Source: Planctomycetota bacterium (GTDB taxonomy: Bacteria > Planctomycetota > UBA11346). Taken from it: DNA of 64,000 bases. The notes beneath the pieces are model-generated. The model was given only the letters and a program-made list of their open reading frames with translations. It was not told the DNA's origin and did not search any database. This document shows positions 26,517 to 59,292 of this stretch, in pieces. The first letter of the stretch is position 1. Each line of letters begins with the position of its first letter. Where the stretch lies: positions 200-64,199 of the forward strand of contig JANWWU010000083.1 in the NCBI GenBank assembly GCA_025055595.1. Reading direction: 5' to 3'. Position numbers and translations under genes: made by a program.

Positions 26517-26518
26517 CC

Positions 26519-27634: not shown

Positions 27635-27636
27635 CC

Positions 27637-29325: not shown

Positions 29326-30407
29326 TGGAGAGCTCGCCGCGCACCCCGGAGGCCCCCGCTCCCGGCGCCGCCGCCCGGCTCGGCGCCTGGGCGACCGTCC
29401 TGCTGATCGGCATCCTCGCGCTGAACACCGCGGGCGGCTGGGTGCGGCTCTCGGGCTCCGGCGTCGCCATCCCGCACTGGCCGCTGATCGAGCTGGCCGA
29501 CGGCAAGCGCACGCTGCTGCCGCCGTTCTCCGCCCGCGACTGGCAGGCGGCGTACGAGGCGTGGCAGGCGCATCAGCAGCGCCTGGCGCAGCGGGTCGCC
29601 GCCGGCGAGCTGCCGGCGCTGGCGCGCGGTCGCCAGCCCGCCGACCTCGACGAGTTCCGCGCGATGTTCCTCATCGAGTGGTTCCACCGCCTGCTCGCCG
29701 CGCTGGTCGGTCTGCTCGCGCTCTCCTGCCTCGGCACCGCGCTCGCGCAGCGCGCGCTGCGCGCGCGCGTCGGCGGCTGGTTCGCGGCGGCGCTGATCCT
29801 GATCGGCGTGCAGGCCTGGCTCGGCGCCGCCCTGATCGCCGAGGGCACGGGCACGCGCTGGCTGTTCCTGCACCAGGGCAACGCCGCGCTGATCGCCGGC
29901 TGCGTGCTGCTCGCGATCCTGCGCCTCGTCGACCAGCGACACGAGCTGCGCGCGCTGCCGCTGTTCGCCGCGGCCCTCGCCTGGCTGCTGCTCGTCAGCG
30001 GCGGCCTGCTCGCCGGCAGCCGCCACCTCGCGCCGCCCGCCGGCCCGCTCGGCCTCGACGCCGGGCCGCTGTGGTGGCCGACGGCGACGCTGGCGGCCAA
30101 CCTGCTCGACAACGGCGCCCTCCATCACCTCGTGCACCGCCTGGCGGCGCTGCTGCTGATCGCCGCGATCCTCGCCGCCTGGTGGCAGGCCGCGCGCCAG
30201 CAGGCCGCCGAACGCGTGCGCCTGGCGCTGGCCGCCGCCGCCACCTTCGCCGTCGTCGAGGCGATGCTCGGGCTGGCGAGCGCCACCCTGCCGCGCGGCG
30301 CGATCATCGTCCCGCTGGCGCACCAGTTCCTCGGCCATGTCCTGTTCCTGACGCTGCTGATCGCGGCCTGCGCGCCGCGCCCCGCGGCCGCTGACGCCGG
30401 AGCCTGA
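29325..30407 (+). CDS. ctaA: Heme A synthase
   Basis: The ATG overlaps the coxA stop (TGATG). The 360-aa polytopic membrane protein has a CtaA/COX15-like pattern with conserved His residues in TM helices. Confidence 0.85.
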   Translation: MESSPRTPEAPAPGAAARLGAWATVLLIGILALNTAGGWVRLSGSGVAIPHWPLIELADGKRTLLPPFSARDWQAAYEAWQAHQQRLAQRVAAGELPALARGRQPADLDEFRAMFLIEWFHRLLAALVGLLALSCLGTALAQRALRARVGGWFAAALILIGVQAWLGAALIAEGTGTRWLFLHQGNAALIAGCVLLAILRLVDQRHELRALPLFAAALAWLLLVSGGLLAGSRHLAPPAGPLGLDAGPLWWPTATLAANLLDNGALHHLVHRLAALLLIAAILAAWWQAARQQAAERVRLALAAAATFAVVEAMLGLASATLPRGAIIVPLAHQFLGHVLFLTLLIAACAPRPAAADAGA

Positions 30408-30409
30408 GC

Positions 30410-31291
30410 ATGCTCGGCGCGCTGCGCGATCTGCTGCGCTTGGCGAAGTTCCGCATCACGCTGGTCGCGGTGTTCACCGGCTACACCGCGATCGCGGTGC
30501 ACGGCGCGCATGCGACCGATGTCGCCTTCCTCTGGCCGCTGTTCATCGCCCTGTTCGCCACTGGCGCCTCGGCCAACGCGCTGAACCAGATCTGCGACCG
30601 CCACCGCGATGCGCTGATGGCGCGCACCCGACAGCGGCGTCCCTTGCCGGCGGGCCGCATCGGCCTCGGCGCCGCGCTCGCCTTCGCGCTCGCGATGCTC
30701 GCGCTCGCGATCGCGATCCTGCTCGCCGTCTACCACAGCCCGCTCGCCGCCCTGTGCAGCGTGATCACCGTCGTCTACTACGCGGTGATCTACACCTGGT
30801 GGCTCAAGCCGCGGCACTGGATCGCGACCGTCGTCGGCGGCGTGCCGGGCGCGATGGGGCCGCTGATCGCCTGGGCCGCCGTCGACCACGCGCTGCCGGC
30901 CGCGGCCTGGGCGCTGTTCGCGCTGATCTTCCTGTGGACGCCGCCGCATGTCTGGGCGCTCGCGATCCGCCTGCGCGAGGACTACGCGCGCGCCGGGATC
31001 CCGATGCTGCCGGTGGTCCGCGGCATCGACGCGACGACGCGGCAGATGCTGATCTACGGCACGGCGCTGGTGCTCTTCACCATCGCGCTGCCGCTGCTGC
31101 CGGCCTACCGCCACAGCTGGATCTACCTCGCGCTGGCCTGCGTGCTCGGGGCAGTGTTCCTCGGCTGGTGCGTGTTCATCCATGTCCGCCGGCCGGTGCC
31201 GCCGACGATGCCGCTCTTCCGCTTCACGATCGCCCACCTCGCGCTGCTCTTCCTCGCGCTGATCGTCGACGCCTTCGTGTGGAGCAAGTGA
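30410..31291 (+). CDS. ctaB: Protoheme IX farnesyltransferase (heme O synthase)
   Basis: The 293-aa UbiA-family protein has CtaB motifs (NQICDRHRDALMARTRQRRPLP, FLWTPPHVWAL). Confidence 0.93.
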   Translation: MLGALRDLLRLAKFRITLVAVFTGYTAIAVHGAHATDVAFLWPLFIALFATGASANALNQICDRHRDALMARTRQRRPLPAGRIGLGAALAFALAMLALAIAILLAVYHSPLAALCSVITVVYYAVIYTWWLKPRHWIATVVGGVPGAMGPLIAWAAVDHALPAAAWALFALIFLWTPPHVWALAIRLREDYARAGIPMLPVVRGIDATTRQMLIYGTALVLFTIALPLLPAYRHSWIYLALACVLGAVFLGWCVFIHVRRPVPPTMPLFRFTIAHLALLFLALIVDAFVWSK

Positions 31292-31953
31292 TGGGCGCGC
31301 TCGCTTCCTCCCGCGCGCGCTTGACGCTGCTGCTGGCCGGGATCCCGCTGGCGATGGCCGCGCTCGCGTTCTTCGCGATGCCGCCGCTCTATTCGCTGTG
31401 GTGCCGGCTGACCGGCACCGGTTTGCGGCCGAACAATCCCGAGGCCGCGCAGCTCGCGCAGCCGACCGGCCGCTTCCTCGAGGTCTTCTTCGAGTCGCGG
31501 GTCTTCGACGACCTGCCGGTCGAGTTCTCGTGCAGCGTCCCGTCGCTCGAGGTCGAAGTCGGGCGCGAGGCCCTCGTCGCTTACCGGCTGCGCAACGCGA
31601 GCGATCGCGTCCTGCACATCCGCCCGATCCACCAGGTGAGCCCGGTCGCCGCCGCCGCGCACTTCGGCATGCGGCTGTGCTTCTGCTTCAACGACCAGAC
31701 GCTGCAGCCCGGCGAGGTCCAGGAGTTCCCGGTCGCCTTCACCTTCGCGCCGAGCCTCGACCCGCGGATCGCCACGGTCTCGATCTGCTACAGCCTGTTC
31801 GCGATCTCGCCCGACGCCCCGCGCAGCGAGGCGCAGCTGCGCATCCAGCGCGCGATCGAGGGCCAGGGCGGCGTGGTGTCGCCGAACTTCCGCCGCCTGA
31901 GCGAGGCCGAGCTCGAGCGGCTGCGCGCCGAGGAACGACGGGGGGAGCGATGA
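31291..31953 (+). CDS. ctaG: Cytochrome c oxidase assembly protein CtaG/Cox11 (CuB insertion)
   Basis: The ATG overlaps the ctaB stop. It has an N-terminal TM, then a Cox11-like soluble domain with CFCF and a conserved HIRPIHQVSP region. Confidence 0.85.
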   Translation: MGALASSRARLTLLLAGIPLAMAALAFFAMPPLYSLWCRLTGTGLRPNNPEAAQLAQPTGRFLEVFFESRVFDDLPVEFSCSVPSLEVEVGREALVAYRLRNASDRVLHIRPIHQVSPVAAAAHFGMRLCFCFNDQTLQPGEVQEFPVAFTFAPSLDPRIATVSICYSLFAISPDAPRSEAQLRIQRAIEGQGGVVSPNFRRLSEAELERLRAEERRGER

Positions 31954-32102
31954 ATCCCGATCGCCTGGGCCTGGCGCTCGGCGCCGGGGTCCTCATCTTC
32001 ATCGTCGTGCTGATCATCGCCTTCAGCCGTTGCGGGCTGCCCAAGGACCCCAAGGAGTGGCGGCGCCAGGAACAGCAGCGCTCGTCGGGAGTGTCGCCAT
32101 GA
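31950..32102 (+). CDS. Small single-TM protein (50 aa), possible oxidase subunit IV-like accessory subunit
   Basis: Its ATG overlaps the ctaG stop and its stop overlaps the coxC start. The sequence is MNPDRLGLALGAGVLIFIVVLIIAFSRCGLPKDPKEWRRQEQQRSSGVSP. The function is inferred only from position. Confidence 0.4.
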   Translation: MNPDRLGLALGAGVLIFIVVLIIAFSRCGLPKDPKEWRRQEQQRSSGVSP

Positions 32103-32971
32103 GTGCCTCCAGCATCTCCCCCCCCGATCGCGGAGCCGAGGAGCACGGCGCCGGCCACGACCACATCCACTTGCCGCCGCCGAGCATCTGGCCCCTCGTC
32201 ACCGCCCTCGGCCTGACGATCGCGCCCTTCGGCGTCGTCTCGCTGCTCGGCGGGCTCAGCGGCTGGCCGCTGCTCGGCCACCCGAGCGTCGGCCTGCTCG
32301 CCACCCTGCTCGGACTGGCGGTCTTCCTCGTCGGCCTGATGGCCTGGGCGCACCAGAACATCGTCGAGAAGCCGCTGGCCCACGACCCCATCCAGCAGCA
32401 GAAGGACCTGCAGCTGTTCGTCCTGCTCTTCCTCGTCGGCGAGCTCGCCGCCTTCGGCGCGATCTTCGGCTACCTGTTCTACATGAATGCGGTCGATCCC
32501 AGCTTCGGGCCGCCGCGCGATCCGGACTTCCCCTACGGCGGGCCGCTGGCCGCGATCGCCACCTTCCTGCTGCTGTCGAGCTCGGTGACCGGCGAGTTCG
32601 CGCACCACGCGGTGACCCATGGCCGCTTCGCCTTCGCCCGCCTGATGCTCGTCCTGACGCTGATCCTCGGCGCGGTCTTCCTCGCCTGCCAGGGCTTCGA
32701 GTGGGGCGAGTTCATCCAGCGCGGCTTCACGCCGCTGGCGATCCCCGAGGGCGGGATGTCGAGCTTCGCCGCCGCCTTCTACACCGGCACCGGCTTCCAT
32801 GGCCTGCATGTCGCGATCGGCCTGGTGCTGCTGTTCCTCGCCTGGATGCGGATGGAGGCCGGAGCCTACCGCGACGGCCGCACCTTCTCGATGACCGCGG
32901 CGAGCTGGTACTGGCACTTCGTCGACATCGTCTGGGTGCTGCTGTTCATCACGCTGTACGTCTTCTCGTGA
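32099..32971 (+). CDS. coxC: Cytochrome c oxidase subunit III with N-terminal His-rich extension
   Basis: Its ATG overlaps the stop of the small ORF. The C-terminal block WYWHFVDIVWVLLFITLYVFS is typical of CoxIII. The N-terminus contains HGAGHDHIH. Confidence 0.9.
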   Translation: MSASSISPPDRGAEEHGAGHDHIHLPPPSIWPLVTALGLTIAPFGVVSLLGGLSGWPLLGHPSVGLLATLLGLAVFLVGLMAWAHQNIVEKPLAHDPIQQQKDLQLFVLLFLVGELAAFGAIFGYLFYMNAVDPSFGPPRDPDFPYGGPLAAIATFLLLSSSVTGEFAHHAVTHGRFAFARLMLVLTLILGAVFLACQGFEWGEFIQRGFTPLAIPEGGMSSFAAAFYTGTGFHGLHVAIGLVLLFLAWMRMEAGAYRDGRTFSMTAASWYWHFVDIVWVLLFITLYVFS

Positions 32972-34302: not shown

Positions 34303-36759
34303 ATGCATCGCCATGCGCAGCTGGCGCTCGCCGTCATCCTCGCCCTCGCCGGCTTCACCGTCCTCGTCGCCCTCGCCAGCTACCACGCCGGACAGATCGG
34401 CGGCAGCCTGCCCGCGGAGACGCATCCCTTCGGGCCGGCCGGGGCCTGGCTCGCGCACATCCTGATCCGCGGCTACGGCCTCGCCGCCTTCCTGCTGCCG
34501 CTCGTCATCATCGGCTGGGCCGCGGCGCTGTGGCGTGAGCGCGATGTCAGCAATCCCTCGCGACGGATCGCCGGCGCCATCCTCCTGCTGCCGGCCGTCG
34601 CCGGGCTGCTGCATCTGCTGCCGCGCGGCCTCGGCGACTGGCTGCTCGTCCGCTGGGATCAAGTGCCGCTCGACGGGTTGGGCGGAGCCGTCGGCTTCTG
34701 GCTCTGCGCGCGGCCCGATCACTGGGCGACGCACGGCGACGGCGGCATCCTGCGCGCCTGGCTCGACGCTGGCGGCGCCGCCTTCGCCCTCGCCGTCGTC
34801 GCCTTGCTCGCGCTGTGGCTGATGGATCTCGGCATCCTCGCGCGTCTGCGGCGCCTCTGGGGCTGGCTGCGGCATCGGCCGCCGAGCGCGGCAGCGGAGA
34901 GTGCACCGAGCGGGCTCTTCGTCAGCCCCGACCCCGAGGTCAGCGCCAGCCGCCGCGCCCGGGCCACCACCAGCTTCCGCGAGCTGCAGGCCCGGCTCAG
35001 CCGCAAGGAGACCCTGCCGGGCCCGGAGGACGCGGCGGCGATCCTCGCCGAGATCCGCCGCCAGCGCGAGGAGCTCGAGCGTGCACTCGCGGCGCAGGCG
35101 GCGGCGAGCGCTCCTGCAGCCGCTGCGCCGGCGCCTCCGGCCCCGGCCCCGGCGGCGCCCCCGGCGGTGCCAGCGCCCGCCCCGCCCGCGCCGGCGGCGG
35201 CCGCCGGCGCCAGCGGCTACGCGCTGCCGCCGCTCTCCCTGCTGCACGCGGCGGCGAACCCCGCCCAGGCCAACGCCGAGGCGGAGAAGCAGCAGACGGC
35301 GCGCGCGATCGAGGCCGCCTTCCGCGCCTTCGCGGTGGAAGTCAGCGTCGTCGGCGCGCAGCGCGGACCGACCGTCACCCAGTACGAACTCAAGCTGCTC
35401 GACGAGGCGATGCGCGTCAACAAGGTCGAGGGCTTCGAGCAGGACCTCGCGCTCAAGCTCGGCTGCGAGGGCATCCGCATCGTCGCGCCGCTGCCGAACA
35501 AGACGACGATCGGCGTCGAGGTTCCCAACCGCGTGCGCGAGCCGGTGACGATGCGCGAGCTCGTCGGCGAGGTCGATCCCCAGGCCCTGGCGATCCCGCT
35601 GATCATCGGCCGCGATGCCGTCGGCCGGCCGCTGATCCTCGATCTGACGCGCGCTCCGCACCTCCTCGTCGCCGGCGCCACCGGCATGGGCAAGTCGGTG
35701 TGCATGAACGCGATGATCTGCTCGGTGCTGCTCTTCCGCCGCCCCGACGAGGTCCGCTTCATCATGGTCGATCCGAAGATGGTCGAGCTTTCCGGCTACG
35801 AGGACATCCCGCACCTGCTGACGCCGCCGATCACCGACATGAGCAAGGCGCACGCCGCTCTCGAGTGGGCCTGCCAGGAGATGGATCAGCGCTACGAGGC
35901 CCTGCGGCTCTCCGGCTGCCGCTCGATCGCCGACTTCAACGCGCTCGGCGAGGCCGAGCTCGACGCCCGTCTGGCGCGCAAGAACGCGCGCCGCGAGGAC
36001 CTCGGCTGCGGGACGCGCATGCCCTACATCGTCATCCTCGTCGACGAGTACGCCGACCTGATGATGGTGAACAAGGAAGTGGAGAAATCGATCGTCCGCC
36101 TGGCGGCGAAGAGCCGGGCCTGCGGCATCCACATCATCCTGACCACCCAGCGCCCGAGCGCCGATGTCGTCACCGGCCTGATCAAGTCCAACCTGCCGAC
36201 CCGCATCTGCTTCCGCGTCGTCGACCGCAGCAACTCGCGCGTCGTCCTCGATGTCAGCGGGGCCGAGAACCTGCTCGGGCGCGGCGACTTCCTGCTGCTG
36301 CAGCCGGGCTCGAGCGCGCCGGTGCGCGGCCAGGGCGTGTACCTCGCCGACGCCGAGATCGAGGCGATCGTCCAGCACGCCCGCGCCCAGGGCGCGCCGC
36401 AGTACGACGAGTCCATCGCCCGCGCCGGGGCCGCCGCCCTCGCCGCCGGCGGCGCGGCGGGCGGCGAGCGCCGCAGCGCGGCGTGGAAGACCGACCGCAA
36501 GCTGCACGAGGCGGTGTGGGCGATGTACAAGTATGACAAGACCGGCGCCGACTTCTTCCGCCGCAAGCTCGGCGTCGGCTACAACAAGGCGACCGAGTTC
36601 GTCGAGACGCTCGAGGAACTCGGCTTCCTCTCGCCGGCCAACGGCACGGCCCCGCGCAAGATCCTCAAGACCTGGGACGAGTGGATCGACCTGCTGCGCG
36701 CCAACGGCGTCGAGCTGTCGGAGGACGTCGAGTACTACCGCTCGCCGTTCGCCGACTAG
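34303..36759 (+). CDS. ftsK: DNA translocase FtsK
   Basis: The 818-aa protein has N-terminal TMs, a Pro/Ala-rich linker, an ATPase domain (GATGMGKS Walker A; IVILVDEYADL Walker B), and a gamma winged-helix domain (VGYNKATEFVETLEELGFLSP). Confidence 0.95.
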   Translation: MHRHAQLALAVILALAGFTVLVALASYHAGQIGGSLPAETHPFGPAGAWLAHILIRGYGLAAFLLPLVIIGWAAALWRERDVSNPSRRIAGAILLLPAVAGLLHLLPRGLGDWLLVRWDQVPLDGLGGAVGFWLCARPDHWATHGDGGILRAWLDAGGAAFALAVVALLALWLMDLGILARLRRLWGWLRHRPPSAAAESAPSGLFVSPDPEVSASRRARATTSFRELQARLSRKETLPGPEDAAAILAEIRRQREELERALAAQAAASAPAAAAPAPPAPAPAAPPAVPAPAPPAPAAAAGASGYALPPLSLLHAAANPAQANAEAEKQQTARAIEAAFRAFAVEVSVVGAQRGPTVTQYELKLLDEAMRVNKVEGFEQDLALKLGCEGIRIVAPLPNKTTIGVEVPNRVREPVTMRELVGEVDPQALAIPLIIGRDAVGRPLILDLTRAPHLLVAGATGMGKSVCMNAMICSVLLFRRPDEVRFIMVDPKMVELSGYEDIPHLLTPPITDMSKAHAALEWACQEMDQRYEALRLSGCRSIADFNALGEAELDARLARKNARREDLGCGTRMPYIVILVDEYADLMMVNKEVEKSIVRLAAKSRACGIHIILTTQRPSADVVTGLIKSNLPTRICFRVVDRSNSRVVLDVSGAENLLGRGDFLLLQPGSSAPVRGQGVYLADAEIEAIVQHARAQGAPQYDESIARAGAAALAAGGAAGGERRSAAWKTDRKLHEAVWAMYKYDKTGADFFRRKLGVGYNKATEFVETLEELGFLSPANGTAPRKILKTWDEWIDLLRANGVELSEDVEYYRSPFAD

Positions 36760-37631
36760 CGACCGACGAGGCGGCCGATCGTCTCCCAGCACCACTGCTG
36801 GGTCAGCAGCAGGGACCGCGCGACCGGCACGAGGAAGACCGGGCTGAGCGCCGCCCGGCCCGCGCGATGGTCGGCGGGGATGCCGTCGGCCGGCAGCCCG
36901 TAGCGCTCGGCGAGCGCCAGGGCCCGCGGCAGGTGCCAGGCCGAGCTGACCAGCGCGACCCGCCGCCAGCCCTGGGCGCGCGCGATCTCGGCGACGCGCG
37001 CGATCTCTTGCCGCGTGTTCTGCGGGCCGGGCACCGCCACGACCTGCGCGGGATCGGCGCCCCAGCCGATGAGGATCGCTGCCGCCTCGGCGCCGAGCGA
37101 GCGCTCGCCCTCGTAGAGATCGGTGCCGGTGGCGAGGATCAGCGGCGCTCGGCCGGCGCGCAGCAGGGCATGGGCGACGCGCAGGCGATCGCCGCTGAAG
37201 CCGAGCTCGGGCTGGCCATCGGGTCCGAGGTCGGTGCCGCCGCCGAGCAGGACGACGGCGTCCCAGCGCTCGGCGGCCGGCGGCGGCACCGAACGCTCGA
37301 GGCGGCCGATCAGCCAGGAGGAGAGCCAGTCGTTGCCGCCGAGCGTCAGCAGCAGCCAGGCGAGCAGGGCGGCGCCAGCGCTCGCCCAGCGCCGGGCGCG
37401 CAGCGCGTCGAGGGCGACGGCGAAGACCAGCAGCCAGGCGACGCCGAGCGGGGTGGCCAGGCGCGAGGCCATCTTCTGCGCCTCGAGGTCGACCAGCAGC
37501 AGGCCGATGCTCGCCAGGCCGCCGAGGACCGTCGCCCAGGCCAGCGGCTTCCAGTCCGGGCGCCCCTCCTGCCAGCGCCGCAGCGCGACGATCGCGAACC
37601 ACAGCGTGATCAGCACGGCGAGCAGCGCCAT
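36756..37631 (-). CDS. DUF218 (YdcF/ElyC/SanA-like) envelope protein
   Basis: The 291-aa protein has N-terminal TMs followed by a DUF218-like core (AVVLLGGGTD...). It is convergent with ftsK, and the two genes share a CTAG stop. Confidence 0.75.
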   Translation of the reverse strand: MALLAVLITLWFAIVALRRWQEGRPDWKPLAWATVLGGLASIGLLLVDLEAQKMASRLATPLGVAWLLVFAVALDALRARRWASAGAALLAWLLLTLGGNDWLSSWLIGRLERSVPPPAAERWDAVVLLGGGTDLGPDGQPELGFSGDRLRVAHALLRAGRAPLILATGTDLYEGERSLGAEAAAILIGWGADPAQVVAVPGPQNTRQEIARVAEIARAQGWRRVALVSSAWHLPRALALAERYGLPADGIPADHRAGRAALSPVFLVPVARSLLLTQQWCWETIGRLVGR

Positions 37632-37694: not shown

Positions 37695-38087
37695 TCAGCG
37701 CGCGGCGGCGCCGATCTCCGGCGCCGCGGCGGCGGCGCGCGCGCGGTCGGCGACGATGTCGACCAGGCGTTCATCGAAGCCGAGATGCGGCCCGAGGCGG
37801 ATCAGGACCCCGGGATGGGCCTCGGCGAGCGCGCGCAGGCGTCGCGGCAGGTCCTCGGCGATATGCATGCCGAGGTGCAAGAGGTAGGGAACGACGAGCA
37901 GCTCGCGCGCGCCCTCGGCGATCGCGCGCTGCGCCGCCTGCTCCAGCGCCGGCTCGCTGAGCTCGAGGTAGCCGACTGCGACCCGCCAGCCCTGGCGCTC
38001 GGCCAGGCAGCGCGCGACGCGCTCCATCGCCGCCGCCGCCGCCGGCGCGCGCGAGCCATGGCCGATCAGCAGCACGGTCGTCGTCAT
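37695..38087 (-). CDS. cbiX: Sirohydrochlorin chelatase, CbiX small form
   Basis: An internal ATG at 38087 gives a 130-aa product beginning MTTTVLLIGHGSRAPAAAAAMERVA....LLVVPYLLHLGMHIAEDLP, which is CbiX/SirB-like. The upstream extension of the 291-aa ORF is rejected because it overlaps the next gene. Confidence 0.75.
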   Translation of the reverse strand: MTTTVLLIGHGSRAPAAAAAMERVARCLAERQGWRVAVGYLELSEPALEQAAQRAIAEGARELLVVPYLLHLGMHIAEDLPRRLRALAEAHPGVLIRLGPHLGFDERLVDIVADRARAAAAAPEIGAAAR

Positions 38088-38089
38088 GC

Positions 38090-40537
38090 TCACACCCAGT
38101 CGAGCTGCGCCGCCAGGGGCGGCGGCAGCTCGCCGCGGACGAAGCGCAGGCGGGCCCGCGCCCGGCTCGAGACATGATCGCGCAGCGTCGCCAAGACATC
38201 GAGCAGGCGGCGCTGCAGGCGCTCGGCCTCGGGGCCGAGGCGGGGGATGGCGAGGAAGTCGGTCAGCGCCTCGGCGAGCTCCTCGCGCTCGTCCTCGGTG
38301 AACTCGCCGGGCTTGACCGCGAGCCGCACCAGCTGCTCTGCGGCGCGCGCGGCGATGCGCGCGAGGTACTCGCCTTCGCCGGCGATCAGCACGCGCGCCA
38401 GACAGCGCGCGACCGCCAGGCGCCCGACCTGCGGGGCCAGGGCCTCGGCGATCCGCACCCGCAGGTGGGCCGGGCACTCGCGGTCGCTGGCGATCGCCGC
38501 CAGGGCTTCGGCGAGGGCCTGGACATTGCCCGGGCCCCAGACGAGGCGCCAGGACGCGACCTCCCGCCACTGCGTCACCAGGCGGTCGACGATGCGCACG
38601 CGCAGAGCCGTACAGTGCGGGGAGCGCGCGATGCGGGTCAGCGCGGCGATGATCCGCGGCACGAGCTCGGTGTGCGCCGCTAGCCGCTCGTCGAGCTGAT
38701 AAGTCAGCTCGCCGGTCGCCGGGTCGGCGAGCGCTGGCGCCGCGCTCGGCGGCAGCTCGGCGCAGGCCTCGATCAGTAGGTCTTCGACGATCGCCTGGCG
38801 GCGTTCCTCGGGGCAGGCGGCGCTCGCCGCGAGGTAGCCGAGGGCTTCGTAACCGTGCCGCCCGAGGCCGTGGCAGGCGGCGTCGACCTCGCCGGCCAGC
38901 TGCCGGTCGGCGCTGGCGGCCTCGGCGAGGATGCGGGCCGCCGCCGCGACCAGGGCCCCGCGCTCTTCGCCCTCCTCGCTACGGCGCAGGCCGGCGAGCA
39001 GACGGCGCGCCGCCGCCGCCGGCTCCGGCAGGCGCAGGACGATCTCGGGCAGGAGGGCGATCAGCTGCCGGCGCACGCGCAGCAGCGGATGGTTCTCGAT
39101 GCCGTCCCACACCGCCGGCAGGGCCGCATCACCGATGCCGATGATCGCCCCGCAGACGAGGTCGACCGTGCGATCGGCGCGGTAGCGCGCCAGGGTCTCG
39201 ATCAGCGGCGGGACGAGGGCGGCGCGCGCCGCCGGACGGCAGGGCAGGAGGGTCGGCAGCTGCTGCTCGAGCGCGGTGACGAGATGCGGTCCGGGAGCCT
39301 CGCGCAGCAGGCGGCGCAGGACATCGGCGAGCTCGTCGGCGGTGTCGACATCGATCGCGCCGTCGCGCGCCAGCTCGGCGAGCAGCCAGTGCACGCTGGT
39401 GTCGTGAGCCCGGCACAGGCGCATGCCGCGCGCCGCGATGCGGCGCGCCAAGCTGCGCTCGGCGTCGCCGCGGCGCAGCGCCGCCGCCAGCGGCATGCGG
39501 TCGCGCGGCTCCTCGTCAGGCGACAGCAGGAGATCGACGCCGCGCTCGAGGACCTGCTCCGAGAGCGCGGCTCCCGGCGCCGCGAGCAGGACGATAACCC
39601 GGGCGTCCTGCTCGGGACCGAAGCCGAGAGCGCGCTGCAGGGCGGCGGCGACGCGCGCCGGCGCCTGCTCCTGCAGGCCGCGGACGAGATCGAGCAGCGA
39701 GAAGGGAGTCGGCAGCAGCAGCTCGAGCAGGCGCTCGAGCGCGCGGTGCCCGGCCAGCCGCGGCGCCAGCGCCGCCGCCGCGGCGATCAGGCCGCGCGTC
39801 ACCTCGCCGCGCACCGCCTGCGCGGTCAGCGCAGCGATCGCCAGATCCTGCTGCTCGGCCGGCAGCGCCGACAGGGCGACAGCGAGGCGCTGCAAGCCCT
39901 GCTCATCGCGCCGCTGCAGCGCGCGGACGAGGTCGACGACGACCGCATGCCCGCCGGCCGCGGCGACCAGCGTGATCGCCCGTTCGCGGACCAGCTCCGC
40001 GCTGTCGGCGAGCAGGAGCGGCATCAGCTCGCCGACCACCGACAGCGGGGCCCCGGCGTAGCGCAGGCGTTCGAGCGCCGCTGCGCGCTGGTCGGCCTCG
40101 CGCGCCTGCATCAGGCCCTCGACCGAGGCGCGCAGCGGCGGCGCCAGCGTCGCGACCAGCGCCGGCAGCCCGCTGTCGGCGGGCGGCTCGGCGAGCGCCG
40201 GCGCCAGGGGATTGCCGACCTCGTCGGCCAGCGCCACCGTGCGCCACCCATCGGCATCGGCGATCACCTGCAGGTCCTCGCGGCCGGCGGCGGCCAGCAC
40301 CGCCGCCGGGTCCTGGCCGAGGCGGCGGTCGGCGAGCAGGCGCCGGCCGGCGTCGTCGGCGACCAGGCTCTCGAGGGCCAGCGCGGTGAAGCAGACGCGG
40401 GCCTCGAGCAGGGCGCCGACGCGCAGCAGCAGGCGCAGGTCGGCGCCGATGATGCGCCGGATGTCGTTGGCATCGCCGGCCCGCAGTCCCTTGGCCATGC
40501 CGGCAGGGTCGCGCCGCGCGGCTGCGCACAAGCGCAT
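38090..40537 (-). CDS. Large alpha-helical repeat (HEAT/ARM-like) hypothetical protein
   Basis: The ATG at 40537 overlaps the Rieske gene stop. It is 815 aa of Leu/Ala/Arg-rich helical repeats with no recognisable catalytic motif. The R-rich 90 aa upstream in the ORF track are rejected. Confidence 0.6.
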   Translation of the reverse strand: MRLCAAARRDPAGMAKGLRAGDANDIRRIIGADLRLLLRVGALLEARVCFTALALESLVADDAGRRLLADRRLGQDPAAVLAAAGREDLQVIADADGWRTVALADEVGNPLAPALAEPPADSGLPALVATLAPPLRASVEGLMQAREADQRAAALERLRYAGAPLSVVGELMPLLLADSAELVRERAITLVAAAGGHAVVVDLVRALQRRDEQGLQRLAVALSALPAEQQDLAIAALTAQAVRGEVTRGLIAAAAALAPRLAGHRALERLLELLLPTPFSLLDLVRGLQEQAPARVAAALQRALGFGPEQDARVIVLLAAPGAALSEQVLERGVDLLLSPDEEPRDRMPLAAALRRGDAERSLARRIAARGMRLCRAHDTSVHWLLAELARDGAIDVDTADELADVLRRLLREAPGPHLVTALEQQLPTLLPCRPAARAALVPPLIETLARYRADRTVDLVCGAIIGIGDAALPAVWDGIENHPLLRVRRQLIALLPEIVLRLPEPAAAARRLLAGLRRSEEGEERGALVAAAARILAEAASADRQLAGEVDAACHGLGRHGYEALGYLAASAACPEERRQAIVEDLLIEACAELPPSAAPALADPATGELTYQLDERLAAHTELVPRIIAALTRIARSPHCTALRVRIVDRLVTQWREVASWRLVWGPGNVQALAEALAAIASDRECPAHLRVRIAEALAPQVGRLAVARCLARVLIAGEGEYLARIAARAAEQLVRLAVKPGEFTEDEREELAEALTDFLAIPRLGPEAERLQRRLLDVLATLRDHVSSRARARLRFVRGELPPPLAAQLDWV

Positions 40538-40854
40538 CACACCCCGATCTCGATGCGCCCCGCGCGCACGCGCACCGGGTAGGAGACGGCGGGCCGCTGC
40601 GGATCGCCGCGCACGCAGGCGCCGTCGCTGAGGCGGAAGCGCCAGCCGTGCGCCGGACAGGCGACGGCGCCCTCGGCGAGGGCCCCGCGCTGCAGGCTGA
40701 CGCCGGCATGCGGACAGGCCTCCTTCAGCGCGTAGAAGCGCTCGCCGAGCCGCCACACGACGAGGCGGCGCGCGCCGATGCGCAGCGCTCGGCCCTCGCC
40801 GTCGCGCCACTCGTCGGCGCTGCCGACATCGACCCAGCGCCAGTCCTCGCTCAT
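40537..40854 (-). CDS. Small Rieske [2Fe-2S] protein, NirD-like
   Basis: The 105-aa protein has Rieske ligand boxes CPHAG and CPAHGW, consistent with NirD. Its start overlaps the nadB stop and its stop overlaps the repeat-protein start. Confidence 0.85.
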   Translation of the reverse strand: MSEDWRWVDVGSADEWRDGEGRALRIGARRLVVWRLGERFYALKEACPHAGVSLQRGALAEGAVACPAHGWRFRLSDGACVRGDPQRPAVSYPVRVRAGRIEIGV

Positions 40855-42473
40855 CGCGCCTCCCGGCGCAGGCCGTAGTGGACGAGCACCGGCTCGCCGG
40901 CGCTGTCCTGGCGGGTGTGCGTGCCGAGGCTCGCCGTGCGGCGCTCCGCGGCCCGCGCGATCAGCGACGCGGCGAGCAGCATGTCCTGCAGCTCCCAGCC
41001 GGCAGTGCCGCGCAGGAAGCCGTTGGCCTGGTGCGCCATCCAGAAGGCGAGCGAGCGGCGGGCCAGGGCCAGCTCGCGCGCCTGGCGCTCGATGCCGACG
41101 CTGCGCCACATCAGCGCGCGAACGCTGCCGACGAGGTCGGCGATGTCCAGGCCCTCGATCGGCGGTGCGCGGTGCTCGGCGCGCAGCGGGCCGCTCGGCT
41201 GGACCTCGGCCGCGGCGTCGCGGCCGGCGGCGAGGCCGACGACCAGGCCCTCGAGCAGGCTGTTCGAGGCCAGGCGGTTGGCGCCGTGCAGGCCGGTGCA
41301 GGCGACCTCGCCGGCCGCCCACAGCCCGGGCACAGTGGTGCGGCCCCGCGCATCGCTGACCACCCCGCCGCAGTGGTAGTGCGCGCTCGGATGCACCGGC
41401 AGCCAGGCCGCGCCGGGATCGATGCCGAAGCGCATGCAGGTATGGTAGATCGAGGGGAAGCGCTCGCGCAGGAAGGCGCTGCCGAGGTGGGTGGCGTCGA
41501 GCCAGACATGCGGATAGCCGCTGCGGCGGATCTCGGCGACGATCGCGCGGGTGACGACATCGCGCGGGGCGAGCTCGGCGTCCGGATGATAGCGCGGCAT
41601 GAAGCGCTCGCCCTCGTGGTTCTTGAGCAGCGCGCCCTCGCCGCGCATCGCCTCGGTGATCAGCAGGCGCGCGGCGCCGGCGATGTACAGCGTCGTCGGA
41701 TGGAACTGCATGAACTCGAGGTCGGCGACGACCGCGCCGGCGCGGTAGGCCATCGCCAGGCCATCGCCGGTGGCGAGCGGCGGATTGGTCGTCTCGCGCC
41801 ACAGCGCGCCGCAGCCGCCGGTGGCGAGGATCACCGCGCCGGCGCGCGCCGCGTAGACCTCCTCACGCTGGCAGTAGGTCGCGCCCGCGATGCGGCCGTC
41901 GCGGTCGAGCAGGTCGATCGCGAACGCGCGCTCGATGATCGTGATCCGCTCGTCGGCGCGCGCCGCCTGCGCCAGCGCGCGCGCGATCTCGGCCCCCGTC
42001 GCATCGCCGTGGGCGTGCAGGATGCGGCGCGCGCTGTGCCCGCCCTCGCGCGCCAGCAGCGGGCGACCCTGGGCGTCCTGGTCGAAGCGGCAGCCGAGGC
42101 GGCGCAGCAGGCGCAGCGCCTCCTCGGCGCCGCCGAGGATCGCGCGCACCGCCGGCTCGTAGCACAGCCCGCAGCCGGCGGCCAGCGTGTCGGCGACATG
42201 CCGCTCGAGGTCGTCGTCGGCGGCCCGCTCGTGCTCGTCGAGGACGGCGGCGATGCCGCCCTGGGCCCAGGCGGTGTTCGACACCGCCAGCTCGCCCTTG
42301 CACAGCACGAGCACCTCGCGGCCGGCCTCGGCGGCGGCGAGCGCCGCGCTCAGCCCAGCGATGCCAGCGCCGATCACCAGCACCTCGGTCTCCAGCCCCG
42401 GACGCCGGCGCGGATCGAAGCCGACGAGGTAGCGCGGGCACGGCGGCCCGGGCTCGCAGACGACCGGCAGCAT
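40851..42473 (-). CDS. nadB: L-aspartate oxidase
   Basis: The ATG at 42473 (MLPVVCEPG...) is followed by an FAD fold GxGxxG (VLVIGAGIAGLSAA) and an NadB-like capping domain and C-terminal helical domain. It is about 540 aa. Confidence 0.9.
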   Translation of the reverse strand: MLPVVCEPGPPCPRYLVGFDPRRRPGLETEVLVIGAGIAGLSAALAAAEAGREVLVLCKGELAVSNTAWAQGGIAAVLDEHERAADDDLERHVADTLAAGCGLCYEPAVRAILGGAEEALRLLRRLGCRFDQDAQGRPLLAREGGHSARRILHAHGDATGAEIARALAQAARADERITIIERAFAIDLLDRDGRIAGATYCQREEVYAARAGAVILATGGCGALWRETTNPPLATGDGLAMAYRAGAVVADLEFMQFHPTTLYIAGAARLLITEAMRGEGALLKNHEGERFMPRYHPDAELAPRDVVTRAIVAEIRRSGYPHVWLDATHLGSAFLRERFPSIYHTCMRFGIDPGAAWLPVHPSAHYHCGGVVSDARGRTTVPGLWAAGEVACTGLHGANRLASNSLLEGLVVGLAAGRDAAAEVQPSGPLRAEHRAPPIEGLDIADLVGSVRALMWRSVGIERQARELALARRSLAFWMAHQANGFLRGTAGWELQDMLLAASLIARAAERRTASLGTHTRQDSAGEPVLVHYGLRREAR

Positions 42474-42583: not shown

Positions 42584-43747
42584 ATGGCGCGCTCGCTGTT
42601 CACTTCGGAGTCGGTGTCGATGGGGCATCCCGACAAGGTCGCGGACCAGATCTCCGATGCGATCCTCGATGCGCATCTGGCGCAGGATCCGGCGAGCCGC
42701 GTCGCCTGCGAGACGCTGTGCACGACCGGCCTGGTGATCGTCGCCGGCGAGGTGACCTCGCGCGCCGTCGTCAACGTGCAGGAGGTCGTCCGCCGCACGA
42801 TCCGCGAGATCGGCTACGATGTCCCGGGCATCGGCTTCGACGCCGACAGCTGCGGGGTGCTGGTCGCGCTGCACGGCCAGAGCCCCGACATCGCGCTCGG
42901 CGTCGATGAGCGGGCGGACAAGGAGCAGGGCGCCGGCGACCAGGGGATGATGTTCGGCTTCGCCGTCGACGAGACTCCGGAGCTGATGCCGCTGCCGATC
43001 GCGCTCGCCCACGCCCTGGTCGCCGAGCTCGCCCGCCTGCGCCAGAGCGGGGCCCTGGCTTACCTGCGGCCCGATGCCAAGAGCCAGGTCACCGTCGAAT
43101 ACGACGGCGAGCGGCCGGTGCGCGTGCACACCGTCGTCGTCTCGACGCAGCACGCCAGCGGCATCGATCAGCAGCGGATCCGCGCCGACATGATCGCGAT
43201 GGCGACGCGGGTGATCAACGCCGCCTCCGCGGTGCAGGTCGACGCCGACACGATCTTCCACGTCAACCCGACCGGCAAGTTCGAGATCGGCGGCCCGCAC
43301 GGCGACACCGGCCTGACCGGACGCAAGATCATCGTCGACACCTACGGCGGGATGGGCCGCCACGGCGGCGGGGCCTTCTCGGGCAAGGACCCGAGCAAGG
43401 TCGATCGCAGCGCGGCCTACGCCGCGCGCTGGGTGGCCAAGCACATCGTCGCCGCCAGGCTGGCGCGCCGCTGCGAGGTGCAGGTCGCCTACGCGATCGG
43501 CATCGCCAAGCCGGTGTCGGTCAAGGTCGACACCTTCGGCACCGGGACGCTGCGCGACGACCTGCTCGCCGAGGCCGTGCAGCGCGTCTTCGATCTGCGG
43601 CCGAAGGCGATCATCCGGGACCTCGACCTGCTGCGCCCGATCTACCGCCACACCGCCTACCACGGGCACTTCGGGCGGCCCGAGTTCCCCTGGGAGCGCA
43701 CCGAGCGCCTGGCGGCGCTGCAGGCCGCGGTGCGCGCGCTCTCCTGA
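42584..43747 (+). CDS. metK: S-adenosylmethionine synthetase
   Basis: The 387-aa protein carries [23 protein letters not shown] and [23 protein letters not shown] signatures. Confidence 0.97.
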
Positions 43748-44156: not shown

Positions 44157-44285
44157 GGTTCGCCTCCGGCCGCCGGCGGCCCACGCGCCGGCGTGTTTGG
44201 GTGATGACGGGGCGTGGGCTCCCCTACCGAGCGCATTGTACAGGGGGTCGATGGCGCCTGTCAAGACAGAAAGGCGCAGCGTCGC

Positions 44286-45071
44286 TCAGGACGGCGCGCG
44301 CGCCGAGAATGGCGACGCCTCGCGCGGCCCCTCGCGACCGTGCTCCTGCAGGAAGTGGCTGAGCAGCGCCAGGACGCGGCCGCTCGTCGGCGCCAGCGCG
44401 TCCTCGGCGAAGCCGTAGCCGGCGCTGGCGATGACCTCGCAGCGCACCGCCTCGCCGCTGCCCGCGGCGTGCGCCGCCAGCGCCTGGGCCTGGGCGAGGG
44501 GCACCTCGCGGTCGTGCTCGCCGTGCAGCAGCAAGAGCGGCGGCCAGTCGGCCGGATCCTGGCGCAGCGGCGAGAGGTCCTTGTGCCGCGCCATCGCGAA
44601 GCGGTCGCAGGCCGGAATGTGCGCGGCGGCGGTGCCATGGCCCTGCTCGAGGGTGGCGAGGACGCCGAGCGCGGCCAGCGCGCGCACCGGCACGCGGTGC
44701 GCCAGGCGCGGCAGCAGGCAGAAGGCGGCGAGCGATCCGCTGCCGTGTCCGACGAGGACCAGCGAGCTCCCGTCGAAGCCGAGGACCTGCGCCTCCTCGA
44801 GCGCTCGGCAGGCGGCGTTGGCGAGGTCGGTCAGCACCTCGTCGCCGGTGCGCGCGCCCTCGCCGAGCGGGCGGTGGCCGAGCGTGGCGACGGCGTAGCC
44901 GCGCCCGGCCAACAGCAGCGCGAAGCCGCGCCCGCGCTCGCAGCGCCCGTCGGCCCACCATCCGGCATCGATGCTGCATATCAGCGCCGACTCGGTCGCC
45001 GCCGGCACGAAGACATCGAGGCGCTGCCGCGGGTGGTTGCCATACGGCACGCTGAGCGCGGCGCTGATCAT
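44286..45071 (-). CDS. Alpha/beta hydrolase fold protein (putative esterase)
   Basis: The ATG at 45071 gives a 261-aa product. It has an oxyanion HGGGW-like region (DAGWWADG), a nucleophile-elbow-like LVGHGSGS, and a C-terminal His (LLLHGEHD). It is real sequence inside the spurious 738-aa ORF. Confidence 0.7.
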   Translation of the reverse strand: MISAALSVPYGNHPRQRLDVFVPAATESALICSIDAGWWADGRCERGRGFALLLAGRGYAVATLGHRPLGEGARTGDEVLTDLANAACRALEEAQVLGFDGSSLVLVGHGSGSLAAFCLLPRLAHRVPVRALAALGVLATLEQGHGTAAAHIPACDRFAMARHKDLSPLRQDPADWPPLLLLHGEHDREVPLAQAQALAAHAAGSGEAVRCEVIASAGYGFAEDALAPTSGRVLALLSHFLQEHGREGPREASPFSARAPS

Positions 45072-45076
45072 GGCGC

Positions 45077-46843
45077 TCACATCCGCTCCGGGGCGGCGAG
45101 GCCGAGCAGGTGCAGGCCCTCGGCGAGGGCCCCGCGCGCCGCGCGCACGAGCAGCAGGCGCGCGGCGCACAGCTCCCGATCCTCGCCGAGGACCTTGGCG
45201 CCGTGCTCGCGGTTGCCGGCGGTCAGCCAGGCCGAGACCGCGCCCGCCAGCCGCAGGACGGCCTGCGCGAGGATGCTCGGCTCGTCGGCGTCGACCGCGC
45301 GCTCGAGCTGGGCGCGCAGGCCGGCGATCGCCAGCAGCACCGCCTTCTCGTCGTCGCGCGTCAGCAGGCGCGGATCGCCGCCGCCATCGACCGTCGCCTT
45401 GCGCTCGATCGAGCACAGCCGGGCGTGCGCGTACTGCACATAGGGCCCGGTCTCGCCGTCGAAGCGCAGCGCGTCCTCGAAGCGGAACTTGACATCGTTG
45501 ACCCGCGCATGCTTGAGGTCGTTGAAGACGACGGCGCCGATGCCGACGGCGCGCGCGACGCGCTCGCGCTCCTCGCCGACCAGCTCGGGGTTCTTCTCGG
45601 CGATGATCGCGCGCGCGCGCTCGACCGCCTCCTCCAAGACCTCGGCCAGCAGCATGACGCGGCCGGCCCGGGTGCGGCCCTTGGCCCAGCCCGGGGCCAG
45701 GCCGGGGCCGGGCTCGTCGTTCCACATCAGCAGCACGCCGAAGCCGACATGGCGCAGGCGGTCGGCATAAGGCCGGCCGAGCAAGCGCGCGACCGCGAAC
45801 CACTCCTGGAAGTGCAGCGACTGGCCGAGGTCGACGACATAGAGCGCGCGGTCGAAGCCGTAGCGCGCGTAGCGCTCGTCGGCCGCCGCGAGATCGCGCG
45901 TCGCGTAGAGCGTGCCGCCGTCGGCGCGCTGCAGCAGCACCGGCTTCTTGAACTGGGGGAAGCCCCGGGCCGCGAGGTCGACGACCGTCGCGCCGTCGTC
46001 GACGGTCGCCAGGCCGCGCGCGCGCAGCTCGGCGAGCAGCGGCGCCATCTTGTCCTCGTACCAGGACTCGCCGCGCCAGTCGTCGAAGTCGACGCCGAGC
46101 AGCTCGTAGACGCGGCGGAACTCGGCGAGCGAGGCCTCGCGGAAGGCCTGCCAGAGCTGGCGGGCCTCGGGATCGCCGTCCTCCAGCGCCTTCGACCAGC
46201 GCCGCGCGTCCTCCTCCAGCGCCGGGTCCTGCTCGGCGGCGCGGCTGGCGCGCACATAGAGCTCGTTGAGAAAGCCGACGGGATCGGCCGCGCGCGCGAG
46301 GTCGGGCAGCTGCAGCCCCTCGCGCTTCCAGCCGCTGATCAGTCGCCCGAAGGCGGTGCCCCAGTCGCCGAGGAAGTTGATGCGGACGACCCGCCAGCCG
46401 GCGGCGGCATAGAGCCGGCTCAGGCTGTGCCCGATCATCGTCGAGCGGATGTGGTGCACGGCGAGGTGCTTGGCGATGTTCGGGCTGCTGAAGTCGATGC
46501 ACACCGTGCGGCCGCGGCCTTGCGCCGAGCGCAGGGCGAGCTGCGGCTCGTCGGCGAGCAGCGGCAGGAAGGCGCTGGCGACCGCCGCTGGCGTCCAGCG
46601 CAGGTTGAGGAAGGGGCCGGCCGCCCGGGCCTCGGCCAGGCCCGAGCGCGCGACCGCCGCCGCCAGTCGCGCCGCCAGCGCCGGCGGTGCGACGCCGAGC
46701 GCCTGCGCCGGCTGGAAGCAGGGCAGCGCGAGGTCGGCGTCGCCGACGCGCGGCGGCGCCAGCGCCCCCGCCAGCGCCGTCGGCTCCAGGCCGGTCTCGC
46801 GCGCCAGCACCTCGAGGACCGGGGCGGTCAGGCGTTCGAGCAT
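45077..46843 (-). CDS. argS: Arginine--tRNA ligase
   Basis: The ATG at 46843 gives a 588-aa class I aaRS with HIGH-like SSPNIAKHLAVHH and a DALR anticodon-binding C-terminus. Confidence 0.95.
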   Translation of the reverse strand: MLERLTAPVLEVLARETGLEPTALAGALAPPRVGDADLALPCFQPAQALGVAPPALAARLAAAVARSGLAEARAAGPFLNLRWTPAAVASAFLPLLADEPQLALRSAQGRGRTVCIDFSSPNIAKHLAVHHIRSTMIGHSLSRLYAAAGWRVVRINFLGDWGTAFGRLISGWKREGLQLPDLARAADPVGFLNELYVRASRAAEQDPALEEDARRWSKALEDGDPEARQLWQAFREASLAEFRRVYELLGVDFDDWRGESWYEDKMAPLLAELRARGLATVDDGATVVDLAARGFPQFKKPVLLQRADGGTLYATRDLAAADERYARYGFDRALYVVDLGQSLHFQEWFAVARLLGRPYADRLRHVGFGVLLMWNDEPGPGLAPGWAKGRTRAGRVMLLAEVLEEAVERARAIIAEKNPELVGEERERVARAVGIGAVVFNDLKHARVNDVKFRFEDALRFDGETGPYVQYAHARLCSIERKATVDGGGDPRLLTRDDEKAVLLAIAGLRAQLERAVDADEPSILAQAVLRLAGAVSAWLTAGNREHGAKVLGEDRELCAARLLLVRAARGALAEGLHLLGLAAPERM

Positions 46844-46891: not shown

Positions 46892-47839
46892 TCAGGAGAG
46901 GCGGCGCAGGGCCTCGGCGAGCTGCGTGAACTCCGCCGGCACCGGCGTCGCGATGCGCAGCGGCTCCCCGCTCGCCGGATCGGGCAGCTCGACGCGCCAG
47001 GCATGCAGCATGTGCCGCGGGGCCTGCACCGGATCGCGGCGGTCGCCGTAGCGCAGGTCGCCGTAGAGCGGGTGCCCGATCTCGGAGAAGTGGATGCGGA
47101 TCTGGTGGTGGCGGCCGGTGGTCGGGCGCACGGCCAGCAGCGAGCCGTAGGGGCCGAGCCGTTCGAGCAGCTCCCAGGAGGTCTCGGCGCAGCGCGCATC
47201 GGGGCCGCGGCCGCTCGCCCAGCGCTCGTAGCCGGGTCCCTTCTCGCGGCAGACGAGGTAGCTGCGGTAGCTGCCCTGCGCGCGCGGGTGGCCGCGAACG
47301 ATCGCGAGGTAGGTCTTGCGCACCTGGTGCGCGCGAAACAGCGCTTCCAGGGCGCGCGCGCTCTGCTCGCTGCGCGCGAACAGGACGATGCCGCTGGTGT
47401 CGGCGTCGAGGCGGTGCACCGGGATCAGCGGCGGCGGCAGGGCCTGGGCGAGGAGGTCGCAGAGGCTCCAGCCCTCGCCGTCGTCGGGCCTGGTCACCGC
47501 CAGGCCCGCCGGCTTGTCGTAGGCGAACAAGTCCGGGGACTGGAAGACGAGCCGCCGCGCTTCGAAGGCGTGCTCGCGCGGCGCGAGTTCGGGGAAGACC
47601 TCGACGATCTCGCCGCGGCGCAGGGTGCGGCTGGCGAAGGTCTCGATCACGCCGTCGACGCGCACCCCGCCGCGCTCGATCAGACGCTTGGCGGCGCGGT
47701 GGCTGATGCCGAGCCGACGGGCGACGAAGGCGGCCAGTCGCTGTCCGACTTCGACGCCGACGACGCGCGCGCCGGGACCGGGACGCCAGTGCGGGGCGCG
47801 GCGCGGCGCGGCGGCGGCGAGCGCGCGCTTGCGGGCCAT
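46892..47839 (-). CDS. RluA-family 23S rRNA pseudouridine synthase with S4 domain (RluC/RluD-like)
   Basis: The ATG at 47839 gives a 315-aa protein with an N-terminal S4 domain. The catalytic motif is HRLDADTSGIVLFAR, followed by TYLAIVRG. Confidence 0.9.
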   Translation of the reverse strand: MARKRALAAAAPRRAPHWRPGPGARVVGVEVGQRLAAFVARRLGISHRAAKRLIERGGVRVDGVIETFASRTLRRGEIVEVFPELAPREHAFEARRLVFQSPDLFAYDKPAGLAVTRPDDGEGWSLCDLLAQALPPPLIPVHRLDADTSGIVLFARSEQSARALEALFRAHQVRKTYLAIVRGHPRAQGSYRSYLVCREKGPGYERWASGRGPDARCAETSWELLERLGPYGSLLAVRPTTGRHHQIRIHFSEIGHPLYGDLRYGDRRDPVQAPRHMLHAWRVELPDPASGEPLRIATPVPAEFTQLAEALRRLS

Positions 47840-47932
47840 GGCCGGGATTAGCGTCAGCGGCGGCTGTGGGCAACTGTCGATGCTTGGCCGGTGCGCGCGT
47901 GCCGGACCCGACGCTCGCAGAAGCTTATTCGA

Positions 47933-54780: not shown

Positions 54781-54781
54781 C

Positions 54782-55912: not shown

Positions 55913-55914
55913 GG

Positions 55915-56520: not shown

Positions 56521-56558
56521 GGCGATCTCGCTGATGACGGTTGACGCAAGCGGCATGC

Positions 56559-59211: not shown

Positions 59212-59264
59212 GGCAGCTGACGGCTTGAAAGCACGCGGCGTGCCAGCGCTCAGAACGCTGCCCC

Positions 59265-59292
59265 TTGACCGGCAGGGGCGTCGTGATACAAG
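59265..59292 (+). promoter_or_regulatory. Candidate sigma70-type promoter for rpsB-tsf
   Basis: TTGACC (59265-70), a 16-nt spacer, and an extended -10 TG-n-TACAAG (59284-92) lie about 118 nt upstream of the rpsB ATG. Confidence 0.3.

Follow-up and report, generated by a model that had tools for sequence, protein, structure and literature searches.

Gene organization of the nadB locus

This analysis concerns a gene pair in a 64-kb stretch of planctomycete DNA (contig JANWWU010000083.1 of assembly GCA_025055595.1), here called the window. In it nadB, the gene for L-aspartate oxidase, is directly followed on the minus strand by the gene of a small Rieske-type [2Fe-2S] protein. Two further genes with the same orientation, encoding a HEAT-repeat protein and a CbiX-type chelatase, come next, and the original prediction had read all four as a single functional block. 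Comparison with related loci suggests that the region is composite. The conserved unit appears to be a clade-restricted, translationally coupled nadB-Rieske operon, in which the Rieske protein would act as a redox partner of NadB, probably as its electron acceptor. With the function deduced from gene order and protein sequence, we give this reading as a whole a slightly better than even chance.

The guanine-cytosine (GC) content of the window is ~74%, so raw lists of open reading frames (ORFs) are crowded, and the real genes were picked by their third-position GC and their Pfam matches. The features of the region are as follows (aa, amino acids; nt, nucleotides):

42473..40851, minus strand: nadB, L-aspartate oxidase, 540 aa (TIGR00551; PF00890, 4.7e-101)
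40854-40851, minus strand: ATGA overlap of the nadB stop with the Rieske start, translational coupling (direct reading of the sequence)
40854..40537, minus strand: small soluble Rieske-type [2Fe-2S] ferredoxin of the nadB-linked subfamily, 105 aa (PF00355, E = 7.5e-19; PF13806, 2.4e-12)
40498..38090, minus strand: HEAT-repeat alpha-solenoid protein, 802 aa from M14 (start from homologue N-termini and the NCBI call; alternative 815-aa ORF from 40537)
38087..37695, minus strand: small CbiX-type (CbiXS) sirohydrochlorin chelatase, 130 aa (PF01903, E = 2.1e-26)
42584..43747, plus strand: metK, divergent upstream flank of nadB (TIGR01034, 1.3e-170)
37631..36756, minus strand: DUF218/ElyC-like membrane protein, downstream flank (PF02698, 4.1e-17)

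The four genes from nadB to cbiX are co-directional and separated by gaps of -4, 38, and 2 nt. Each of the four ORFs is a real gene of the minus strand, and the earlier description of them holds apart from the start of the HEAT gene. The predicted overlap of the nadB stop with the Rieske start is read directly in the ATGA, and the 2 nt between the HEAT stop and the CbiX start are likewise seen in the sequence. A second overlap had been claimed between the Rieske stop and the start of the 815-aa ORF. The TGATG at 40539-40535 exists, but this start is most likely mis-called. Because 40 of the 52 members of the HEAT family start with the very Met that corresponds to residue 14 (MAKGLRAGD), in agreement with the NCBI record, where the product is annotated as 802 aa, the start was moved to 40498. 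This most likely position lies 38 nt past the Rieske stop and 39 nt downstream of the 815-aa start. Riboswitches and other RNAs were looked for upstream of nadB and metK, and none was found. Scans for sigma-70 promoters and intrinsic terminators gave no matches, such scans carrying little information at 74% GC.

Conservation of the nadB-Rieske pair

One genome per species was scanned with the NadB of the window, which yielded 80 planctomycete nadB loci, and the neighboring genes within 6 kb were compared. A Rieske gene encoding all four cluster ligands was found directly downstream of nadB, on the same strand, at each of the nine genome loci that have a NadB identity of 65% or more and downstream DNA available (L011-L017, L021, and L090). 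No Rieske gene was present at any of the 68 loci with NadB identities of 61% or less, including the sister lineage L018/L019. The pair was also found on a metagenome contig (L092), bringing the number of pairs to 11 with that of the window. The ATGA overlap is kept in 10 of these 11 independent pairs, the exception being L014 with a 37-nt gap between the two genes. The coupling reported for the window is thus real, and its conservation across the pairs sustains and strengthens the earlier proposal that NadB has a Rieske protein dedicated to it.

The clade is deep, with pairwise identities of 65-83% for NadB and 37-75% for the Rieske protein, and the GC content of the loci ranges from 55 to 74%. 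When the window was compared with each of the other loci, nadB and the Rieske gene were the only genes in common. Flanking genes elsewhere include Mur ligase/GlnA, DAHP synthase/TypA, and a MreB-like gene, the downstream flanks all differ, and metK adjoins nadB in just one further locus of the 80 (L054). Judged from these loci, the conserved unit comprises two genes only, namely nadB and the gene of a 105-aa, predicted cytoplasmic Rieske protein with low-potential-type ligand motifs. A Mur-ligase/FolC-like gene was observed directly upstream of nadB in L011, L012, L014, L018, and L019 (~4.3-5.96 kb), where the window has metK instead and L021 a DAHP synthase gene. This Mur-ligase gene is the ancestral upstream neighbor, retained by the sister group and some clade members.

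In neighbor-joining trees, the Rieske-linked NadBs were monophyletic, and the nadB-linked proteins formed one clade (including P0060 and P0063) among 105 small Rieske proteins. A scan with the Rieske alignment for generic small-Rieske loci from metagenomes returned a NadB/SdhA-family neighbor in one of 80 cases, and this locus itself belongs to the clade. The sequence comparisons show a single acquisition of the Rieske gene behind nadB, after which overlap and ligands were kept in every sampled descendant. Residue 44 of the Rieske protein, two positions before the first cluster cysteine, is Lys in the nadB-linked proteins and Asp in 85% of the other small Rieske proteins, and W16, V52, and G104 are likewise specific to the nadB-linked clade.

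The main rival to a partnership is that the Rieske gene is a passenger, whose product serves another enzyme encoded elsewhere or acts as a general electron carrier, and which is tied to nadB by its embedded start and the nadB promoter. Several observations favor this explanation and weigh against a redox partnership with NadB. A start/stop overlap is hard to separate mechanically, so adjacency might persist without any shared function. The Rieske protein diverges much faster than NadB, and neither the sister lineage L018/L019 nor any other planctomycete NadB has a Rieske gene beside it. Many unrelated contexts also contain small Rieske ferredoxins (29-47% identity). A closer relative (P0062, 51% identity), which carries five extra residues between its ligand boxes and falls outside the nadB-linked clade, is encoded away from nadB, with two ferritin-like genes and DNA-polymerase exonuclease fragments upstream of it (L179, 5996-8330). 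A passenger would nevertheless have had to stay in place across a deep clade while every other neighbor changed, and the nadB-linked proteins form a distinct orthologous group with signature residues of their own (K44 for the usual Asp, and W16). Moreover, none of the 11 loci has an oxygenase or ferredoxin reductase gene near the pair that the Rieske protein could serve. We regard the passenger explanation as unlikely; it is the strongest competitor of the partnership.

The flavoprotein is a predicted genuine NadB

The flavoprotein scored 509.9 bits against the L-aspartate oxidase equivalog TIGR00551, above the cut-off of 452.75, and its best match in the PDB was E. coli NadB (1CHU, 3e-107). 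Alignment with 1CHU demonstrated that the equivalents of E121 (REGGHS), H244 (QFHPT), R290 (LAPRD), H351 (SAHY), and R386 (GANRLASNS) are all kept. The histidine that binds flavin adenine dinucleotide (FAD) covalently is missing, and SNTAWAQGG sits where SdhA has S-H-T. Since the equivalog cut-off is passed and the catalytic residues are all kept, the protein was called NadB. The cautious earlier wording, an L-aspartate oxidase-like enzyme, can be sharpened accordingly: by sequence it appears to be a genuine NadB, as opposed to a similar enzyme that serves a different pathway.

The C-terminus of the protein deviates from the family. E. coli NadB carries an R-x-E-S-R-G-x-H motif in this region, which corresponds to residues 512-521 of the window NadB, and E-S-R-G was found in 67 of 69 planctomycete NadBs outside the Rieske-linked clade. 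The window NadB has ASLGTH in place of the family-wide E-S-R-G-x-H. Within the Rieske-linked clade, A-S-V-G-T-H is present in 7 of 9 NadBs (in the form R-T-A-S-V-G-T-H), and L015 has HGIGTH. The sister group L018/L019, which has no Rieske gene, shows R-T-G-S-V-G-T-H, so the change from E-S-R-G is common to both groups. To our knowledge, E-S-R-G-x-H is not a catalytic residue set. Speculatively, the changed motif of NadB and K44 of the Rieske protein may mark a new interface between the two proteins.

The Rieske protein is a distinct small ferredoxin

The Rieske protein matched PF00355 with 67.9 bits (cut-off 20.3) and contains both ligand boxes, C47-P-H49 and, after 16 intervening residues, C66-P-A-H69 (CPHAG...CPAHGW), in line with the earlier description of a ligand-complete Rieske protein. 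These ligands are invariant in 17 of 17 aligned relatives and in 105 of 105 aligned small Rieske proteins. Neither a signal peptide nor a transmembrane segment could be read from the sequence. The best PDB match was the CarAc ferredoxin (2.3e-12), so that by sequence the nearest proteins of solved structure are ferredoxins of oxygenase systems.

No characterized family claims the protein. Among oxygenase ferredoxins, the scores were 60.6 for AndAb (NF041683, cut-off 150), 47.6 for HcaC (NF042948, cut-off 150), and 30.5 for MocE (TIGR02377, cut-off 136). Membership in a dioxygenase ferredoxin family, with an encounter with nadB by chance, had been named as a possibility that would undo the original prediction; it is not borne out by these scores or by the gene neighborhoods, which lack oxygenases. 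The two NirD models also stayed below their cut-offs (TIGR02378, 63.2 against 74.65; NF007066, 26.8 against 135). Assignment as a generic NirD or an oxygenase ferredoxin was rejected, as no family cut-off was reached.

The similarity to NirD nevertheless bears on a second, lesser rival, in which the Rieske fold binds NadB structurally or regulatorily, for instance for stability or for the hand-over of iminoaspartate to NadA, and carries no catalytic electrons. Such a NirD-like accessory subunit would agree with TIGR02378 being the top NCBIfam match (63.2 bits, below cut-off) and with the additional match to PF13806 (Rieske_2), and there is a precedent in E. coli NirD, which is required by the flavoprotein NirB though it lacks cluster ligands. 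The four ligands of the nadB-linked proteins are, however, invariant across the clade, pointing to a functional redox cluster, and the NirD cut-off of 74.65 was missed. We consider a role of this kind improbable, distinctly more so than the passenger gene.

A possible electron-transfer role for the Rieske protein

Conserved gene pairs, overlapping ones above all, predict physical or functional partners, and some functional partnership of NadB and the Rieske protein is the part of our reading that we hold with most confidence, as probable. Electron transfer from a flavoprotein to a Rieske ferredoxin is well known in Rieske oxygenase systems. The known electron acceptors of NadB are O2 and fumarate (PMC8262920). 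Known NadBs are single-subunit enzymes with no second redox center, and E. coli NadB is among the few sources of intracellular H2O2 that have been identified (PMC11495604). Because the reduced flavin (FADH2) of NadB needs re-oxidation at each turnover and the enzyme has no second redox center, electron transfer would be the most economical function for the Rieske protein. A role as acceptor is favored by the precedent of SdhA passing electrons to SdhB, by the exchange between Rieske proteins and flavoproteins in oxygenase systems, and by the aerobic host (see below). If the Rieske protein is ferredoxin-like, its midpoint potential would lie near -150 mV, which would suit electron transfer from the FAD of NadB (about -216 mV). 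Taken alone, the specific role as acceptor or relay for NadB falls just short of an even chance in our estimate. A search of the literature gave no report of a NadB paired with a Rieske partner.

The following mechanism is proposed. NadB would oxidize L-aspartate to iminoaspartate, and the co-translated Rieske protein would then re-oxidize the FADH2 of NadB, taking one electron at a time. NadB would in this way be an aspartate dehydrogenase paired with an iron-sulfur protein of its own, as the paralogue SdhA is paired with SdhB, and would avoid both the reduction of O2 to H2O2 and the dependence on fumarate. In its most complete form, NadB and the Rieske protein would be a minimal two-subunit L-aspartate dehydrogenase, a pared-down counterpart of SdhAB, in which electrons would go from FAD to the Rieske cluster, and not to O2 or fumarate, and from there to an acceptor in the cell, giving an H2O2-free first step of nicotinamide adenine dinucleotide (NAD) synthesis. 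We put this complete form forward tentatively, and rate it lower than the acceptor role as such.

If true, the aerobic planctomycete lineage would begin NAD synthesis without releasing H2O2, and the choice between oxidase and dehydrogenase in the NadB family could be changed by the recruitment of a small ferredoxin. The Rieske ferredoxins would gain a new class of partner outside the oxygenase and nitrite-reductase systems. With only two proteins, the pair would also be a simple system for testing what prevents enzymes of the SdhA family from reacting with O2.

The HEAT-repeat and CbiX genes as unrelated neighbors

The HEAT-repeat protein of the window had no match in Pfam or NCBIfam. A word-indexed search retrieved 58 full-length homologues, and an exhaustive search of 1.84 billion sequences retrieved 260 representatives; the named members of the family come from metagenome-assembled genomes (MAGs) of Planctomycetes. 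An AlphaFold2 (AF2) model built from the family alignment (pLDDT 92.6, pTM 0.74) is an all-helical alpha-solenoid with a small N-terminal alpha/beta part. Foldseek matched it in the PDB to importin-4 and importin-beta, CAND1, karyopherins, and the PP2A-A subunit (E 1e-6 to 1e-4), and two distant members of the family (P0122 and P0191) pass the HEAT_2 model PF13646 with 30.7 and 33.1 bits (cut-off 27.7). The model, the structural matches, and the distant members agree with the HEAT/ARM-like architecture that had been recognized from the sequence. Nothing points to a specific function beyond the fold.

Seven genomic contexts of HEAT homologues (42-66% identity) were examined, with neighbors such as HtrA-like proteases, Ser/Thr kinases, PEP carboxylase, and a helicase. 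Genes for a Ser/Thr protein kinase and FHA proteins lie one to four genes away from the HEAT gene in 4 of the 7 contexts, and several contexts have a conserved hypothetical gene of ~190 aa followed by two HSP20 genes downstream (kinase/FHA or HSP20 neighbors were seen in L002, L008, L009, L004, and the P0018 contig). These neighbors could hint at the real partners of the HEAT protein, or could reflect chance in the kinase-rich Planctomycetes.

CbiX matched PF01903 with 92.7 bits (cut-off 22), and its catalytic histidines could be read from the sequence as H10 in LLIGHGSR and the His in LHLGMHI. The score for CfbA, 68, lies below the cut-off of 120. Its closest relatives (P0082 and P0089, 48-51% identity) lie in anaerobic cobalamin clusters with the order CbiC-CbiX-CbiMNQO-CbiD-methyltransferases. 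This location weakens the association with siroheme and NirB on which the original prediction had drawn.

That nadB, the Rieske gene, the HEAT gene, and cbiX form one four-gene module, either as a siroheme-linked redox system or around a NadB-like enzyme with a new role, is suggested by their tight packing in one direction with the gaps given above. It is also suggested by a repetition of the block in a further assembly (GCA_026415635.1) from what is essentially this organism, and the arrangement was found on a Logan contig as well. The counterpart of the window is contig JAVQYS010000001.1 of another planctomycete MAG (Planctomycetota, GCA_033583855.1). Beyond this species and its near-identical strains, the HEAT and CbiX genes do not accompany the pair. 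None of the seven HEAT contexts contains nadB, a Rieske gene, or cbiX, and none of the 80 planctomycete loci, that of the closest species (77% NadB identity) included, has a HEAT, CbiX, or DUF218 gene within 6 kb of nadB. The relatives of CbiX belong to cobalamin operons, every NadB hallmark residue is retained, and the Pfam sweep detected neither NirB nor sulfite reductase in the window; nor does a NirB-like gene adjoin any pair of the clade.

We consider the module very improbable. As a candidate it was rejected after comparison of the 7 HEAT contexts and 80 nadB loci, and so was the siroheme link, the relatives of CbiX being found in cbi operons and no siroheme enzyme in the window. The earlier claim of a functional four-gene block is hence not upheld. 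Nor is the other option upheld, in which a NadB-like enzyme would belong to a siroheme-linked system; the missed NirD cut-off also speaks against it. On the comparative sequence evidence, the HEAT and small CbiX genes appear to be unrelated, recently placed neighbors, and the block a chance arrangement in a single species. Proximity to nadB should not be used to annotate these two genes.

Genomic context of the pair

The earlier statement that nadA and nadC are not adjacent to nadB was correct: neither gene was detected in the window by the Pfam sweep or by tblastn with E. coli NadA and NadC. By tblastn they were also absent from ~170 loci, including the region within 6 kb of nadB at 80 of 80 planctomycete loci, so it is usual in this phylum for nadB to stand alone.

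The Pfam sweep of the window detected a caa3-type oxidase with heme A/O synthases, besides housekeeping genes. An aerobic respiration cluster extends over 17239-32971, where alternative complex III is followed by COX2, COX1, CtaA, CtaB, and COX3. The parts of alternative complex III include a 1508-aa ActB-like fusion, an NrfD-like ActC, ActD, and cytochrome c subunits. Subunit I of a cytochrome bd oxidase is encoded at 813-2174. As the window encodes caa3 and bd oxidases together with alternative complex III, the host was taken to be an aerobe. Genes for the flagellar P-ring protein FlgI and for a FlgJ-like, rod-binding protein lie at 54493-56632, beside FKBP and lpxA genes, and a tRNA gene is located at 6692-6779 on the minus strand. 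In four segments (5471-6757, 44208-45443, 46892-47851, and 56632-59287), the codon-position GC was atypical and the best candidate frames did not match Pfam.

Comparison with known systems

The NadB of the window shares family, domain order, substrate and catalytic residues, and non-covalent FAD with E. coli NadB (1CHU/1KNR; TIGR00551). It differs from stand-alone NadBs by the translationally coupled Rieske gene and the replaced C-terminal E-S-R-G motif.

The B. subtilis YhfW type also combines an amino-acid-oxidase-like flavoprotein with a Rieske [2Fe-2S] domain (PMC7317962). In YhfW, however, a flavin domain of the DAO family is fused to the Rieske domain in one polypeptide, whereas here two proteins are encoded and the flavoprotein is of the NadB/SdhA family. 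Deletion of yhfW raised the nadB, nadC, and nadA transcripts 29-39 fold (PMC7317962), an incidental link between a Rieske flavoprotein and NAD synthesis.

The oxygenase ferredoxins CarAc, BphF, AndAb, and T4moC resemble the nadB-linked protein in size and in the low-potential-type C-P-H...C-P-x-H motifs without disulfide cysteines, and they are reduced by flavoproteins. The proposed electron flow to the nadB-linked Rieske protein differs in that it would start from a substrate-oxidizing flavoenzyme and not from NAD(P)H.

In SdhA-SdhB and FrdA-FrdB, a flavoprotein paralogous to NadB passes FAD electrons to a [2Fe-2S] cluster on a partner encoded next to it, as is proposed here. SdhB, however, is a three-cluster protein of plant-ferredoxin and bacterial-ferredoxin type without the Rieske fold, SdhA binds its FAD covalently, and no membrane anchor genes are found beside nadB and the Rieske gene. 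NirB-NirD offers a similar layout, with a Rieske-fold protein of ~105 aa encoded directly downstream of its flavoprotein partner, but NirB belongs to another flavoprotein family and contains siroheme, and no nirB is present in the window. The cluster ligands, all four present in the nadB-linked Rieske proteins, are missing from E. coli NirD. The nadB-Rieske layout is thus most like SdhA-SdhB or NirB-NirD, and is a member of neither.

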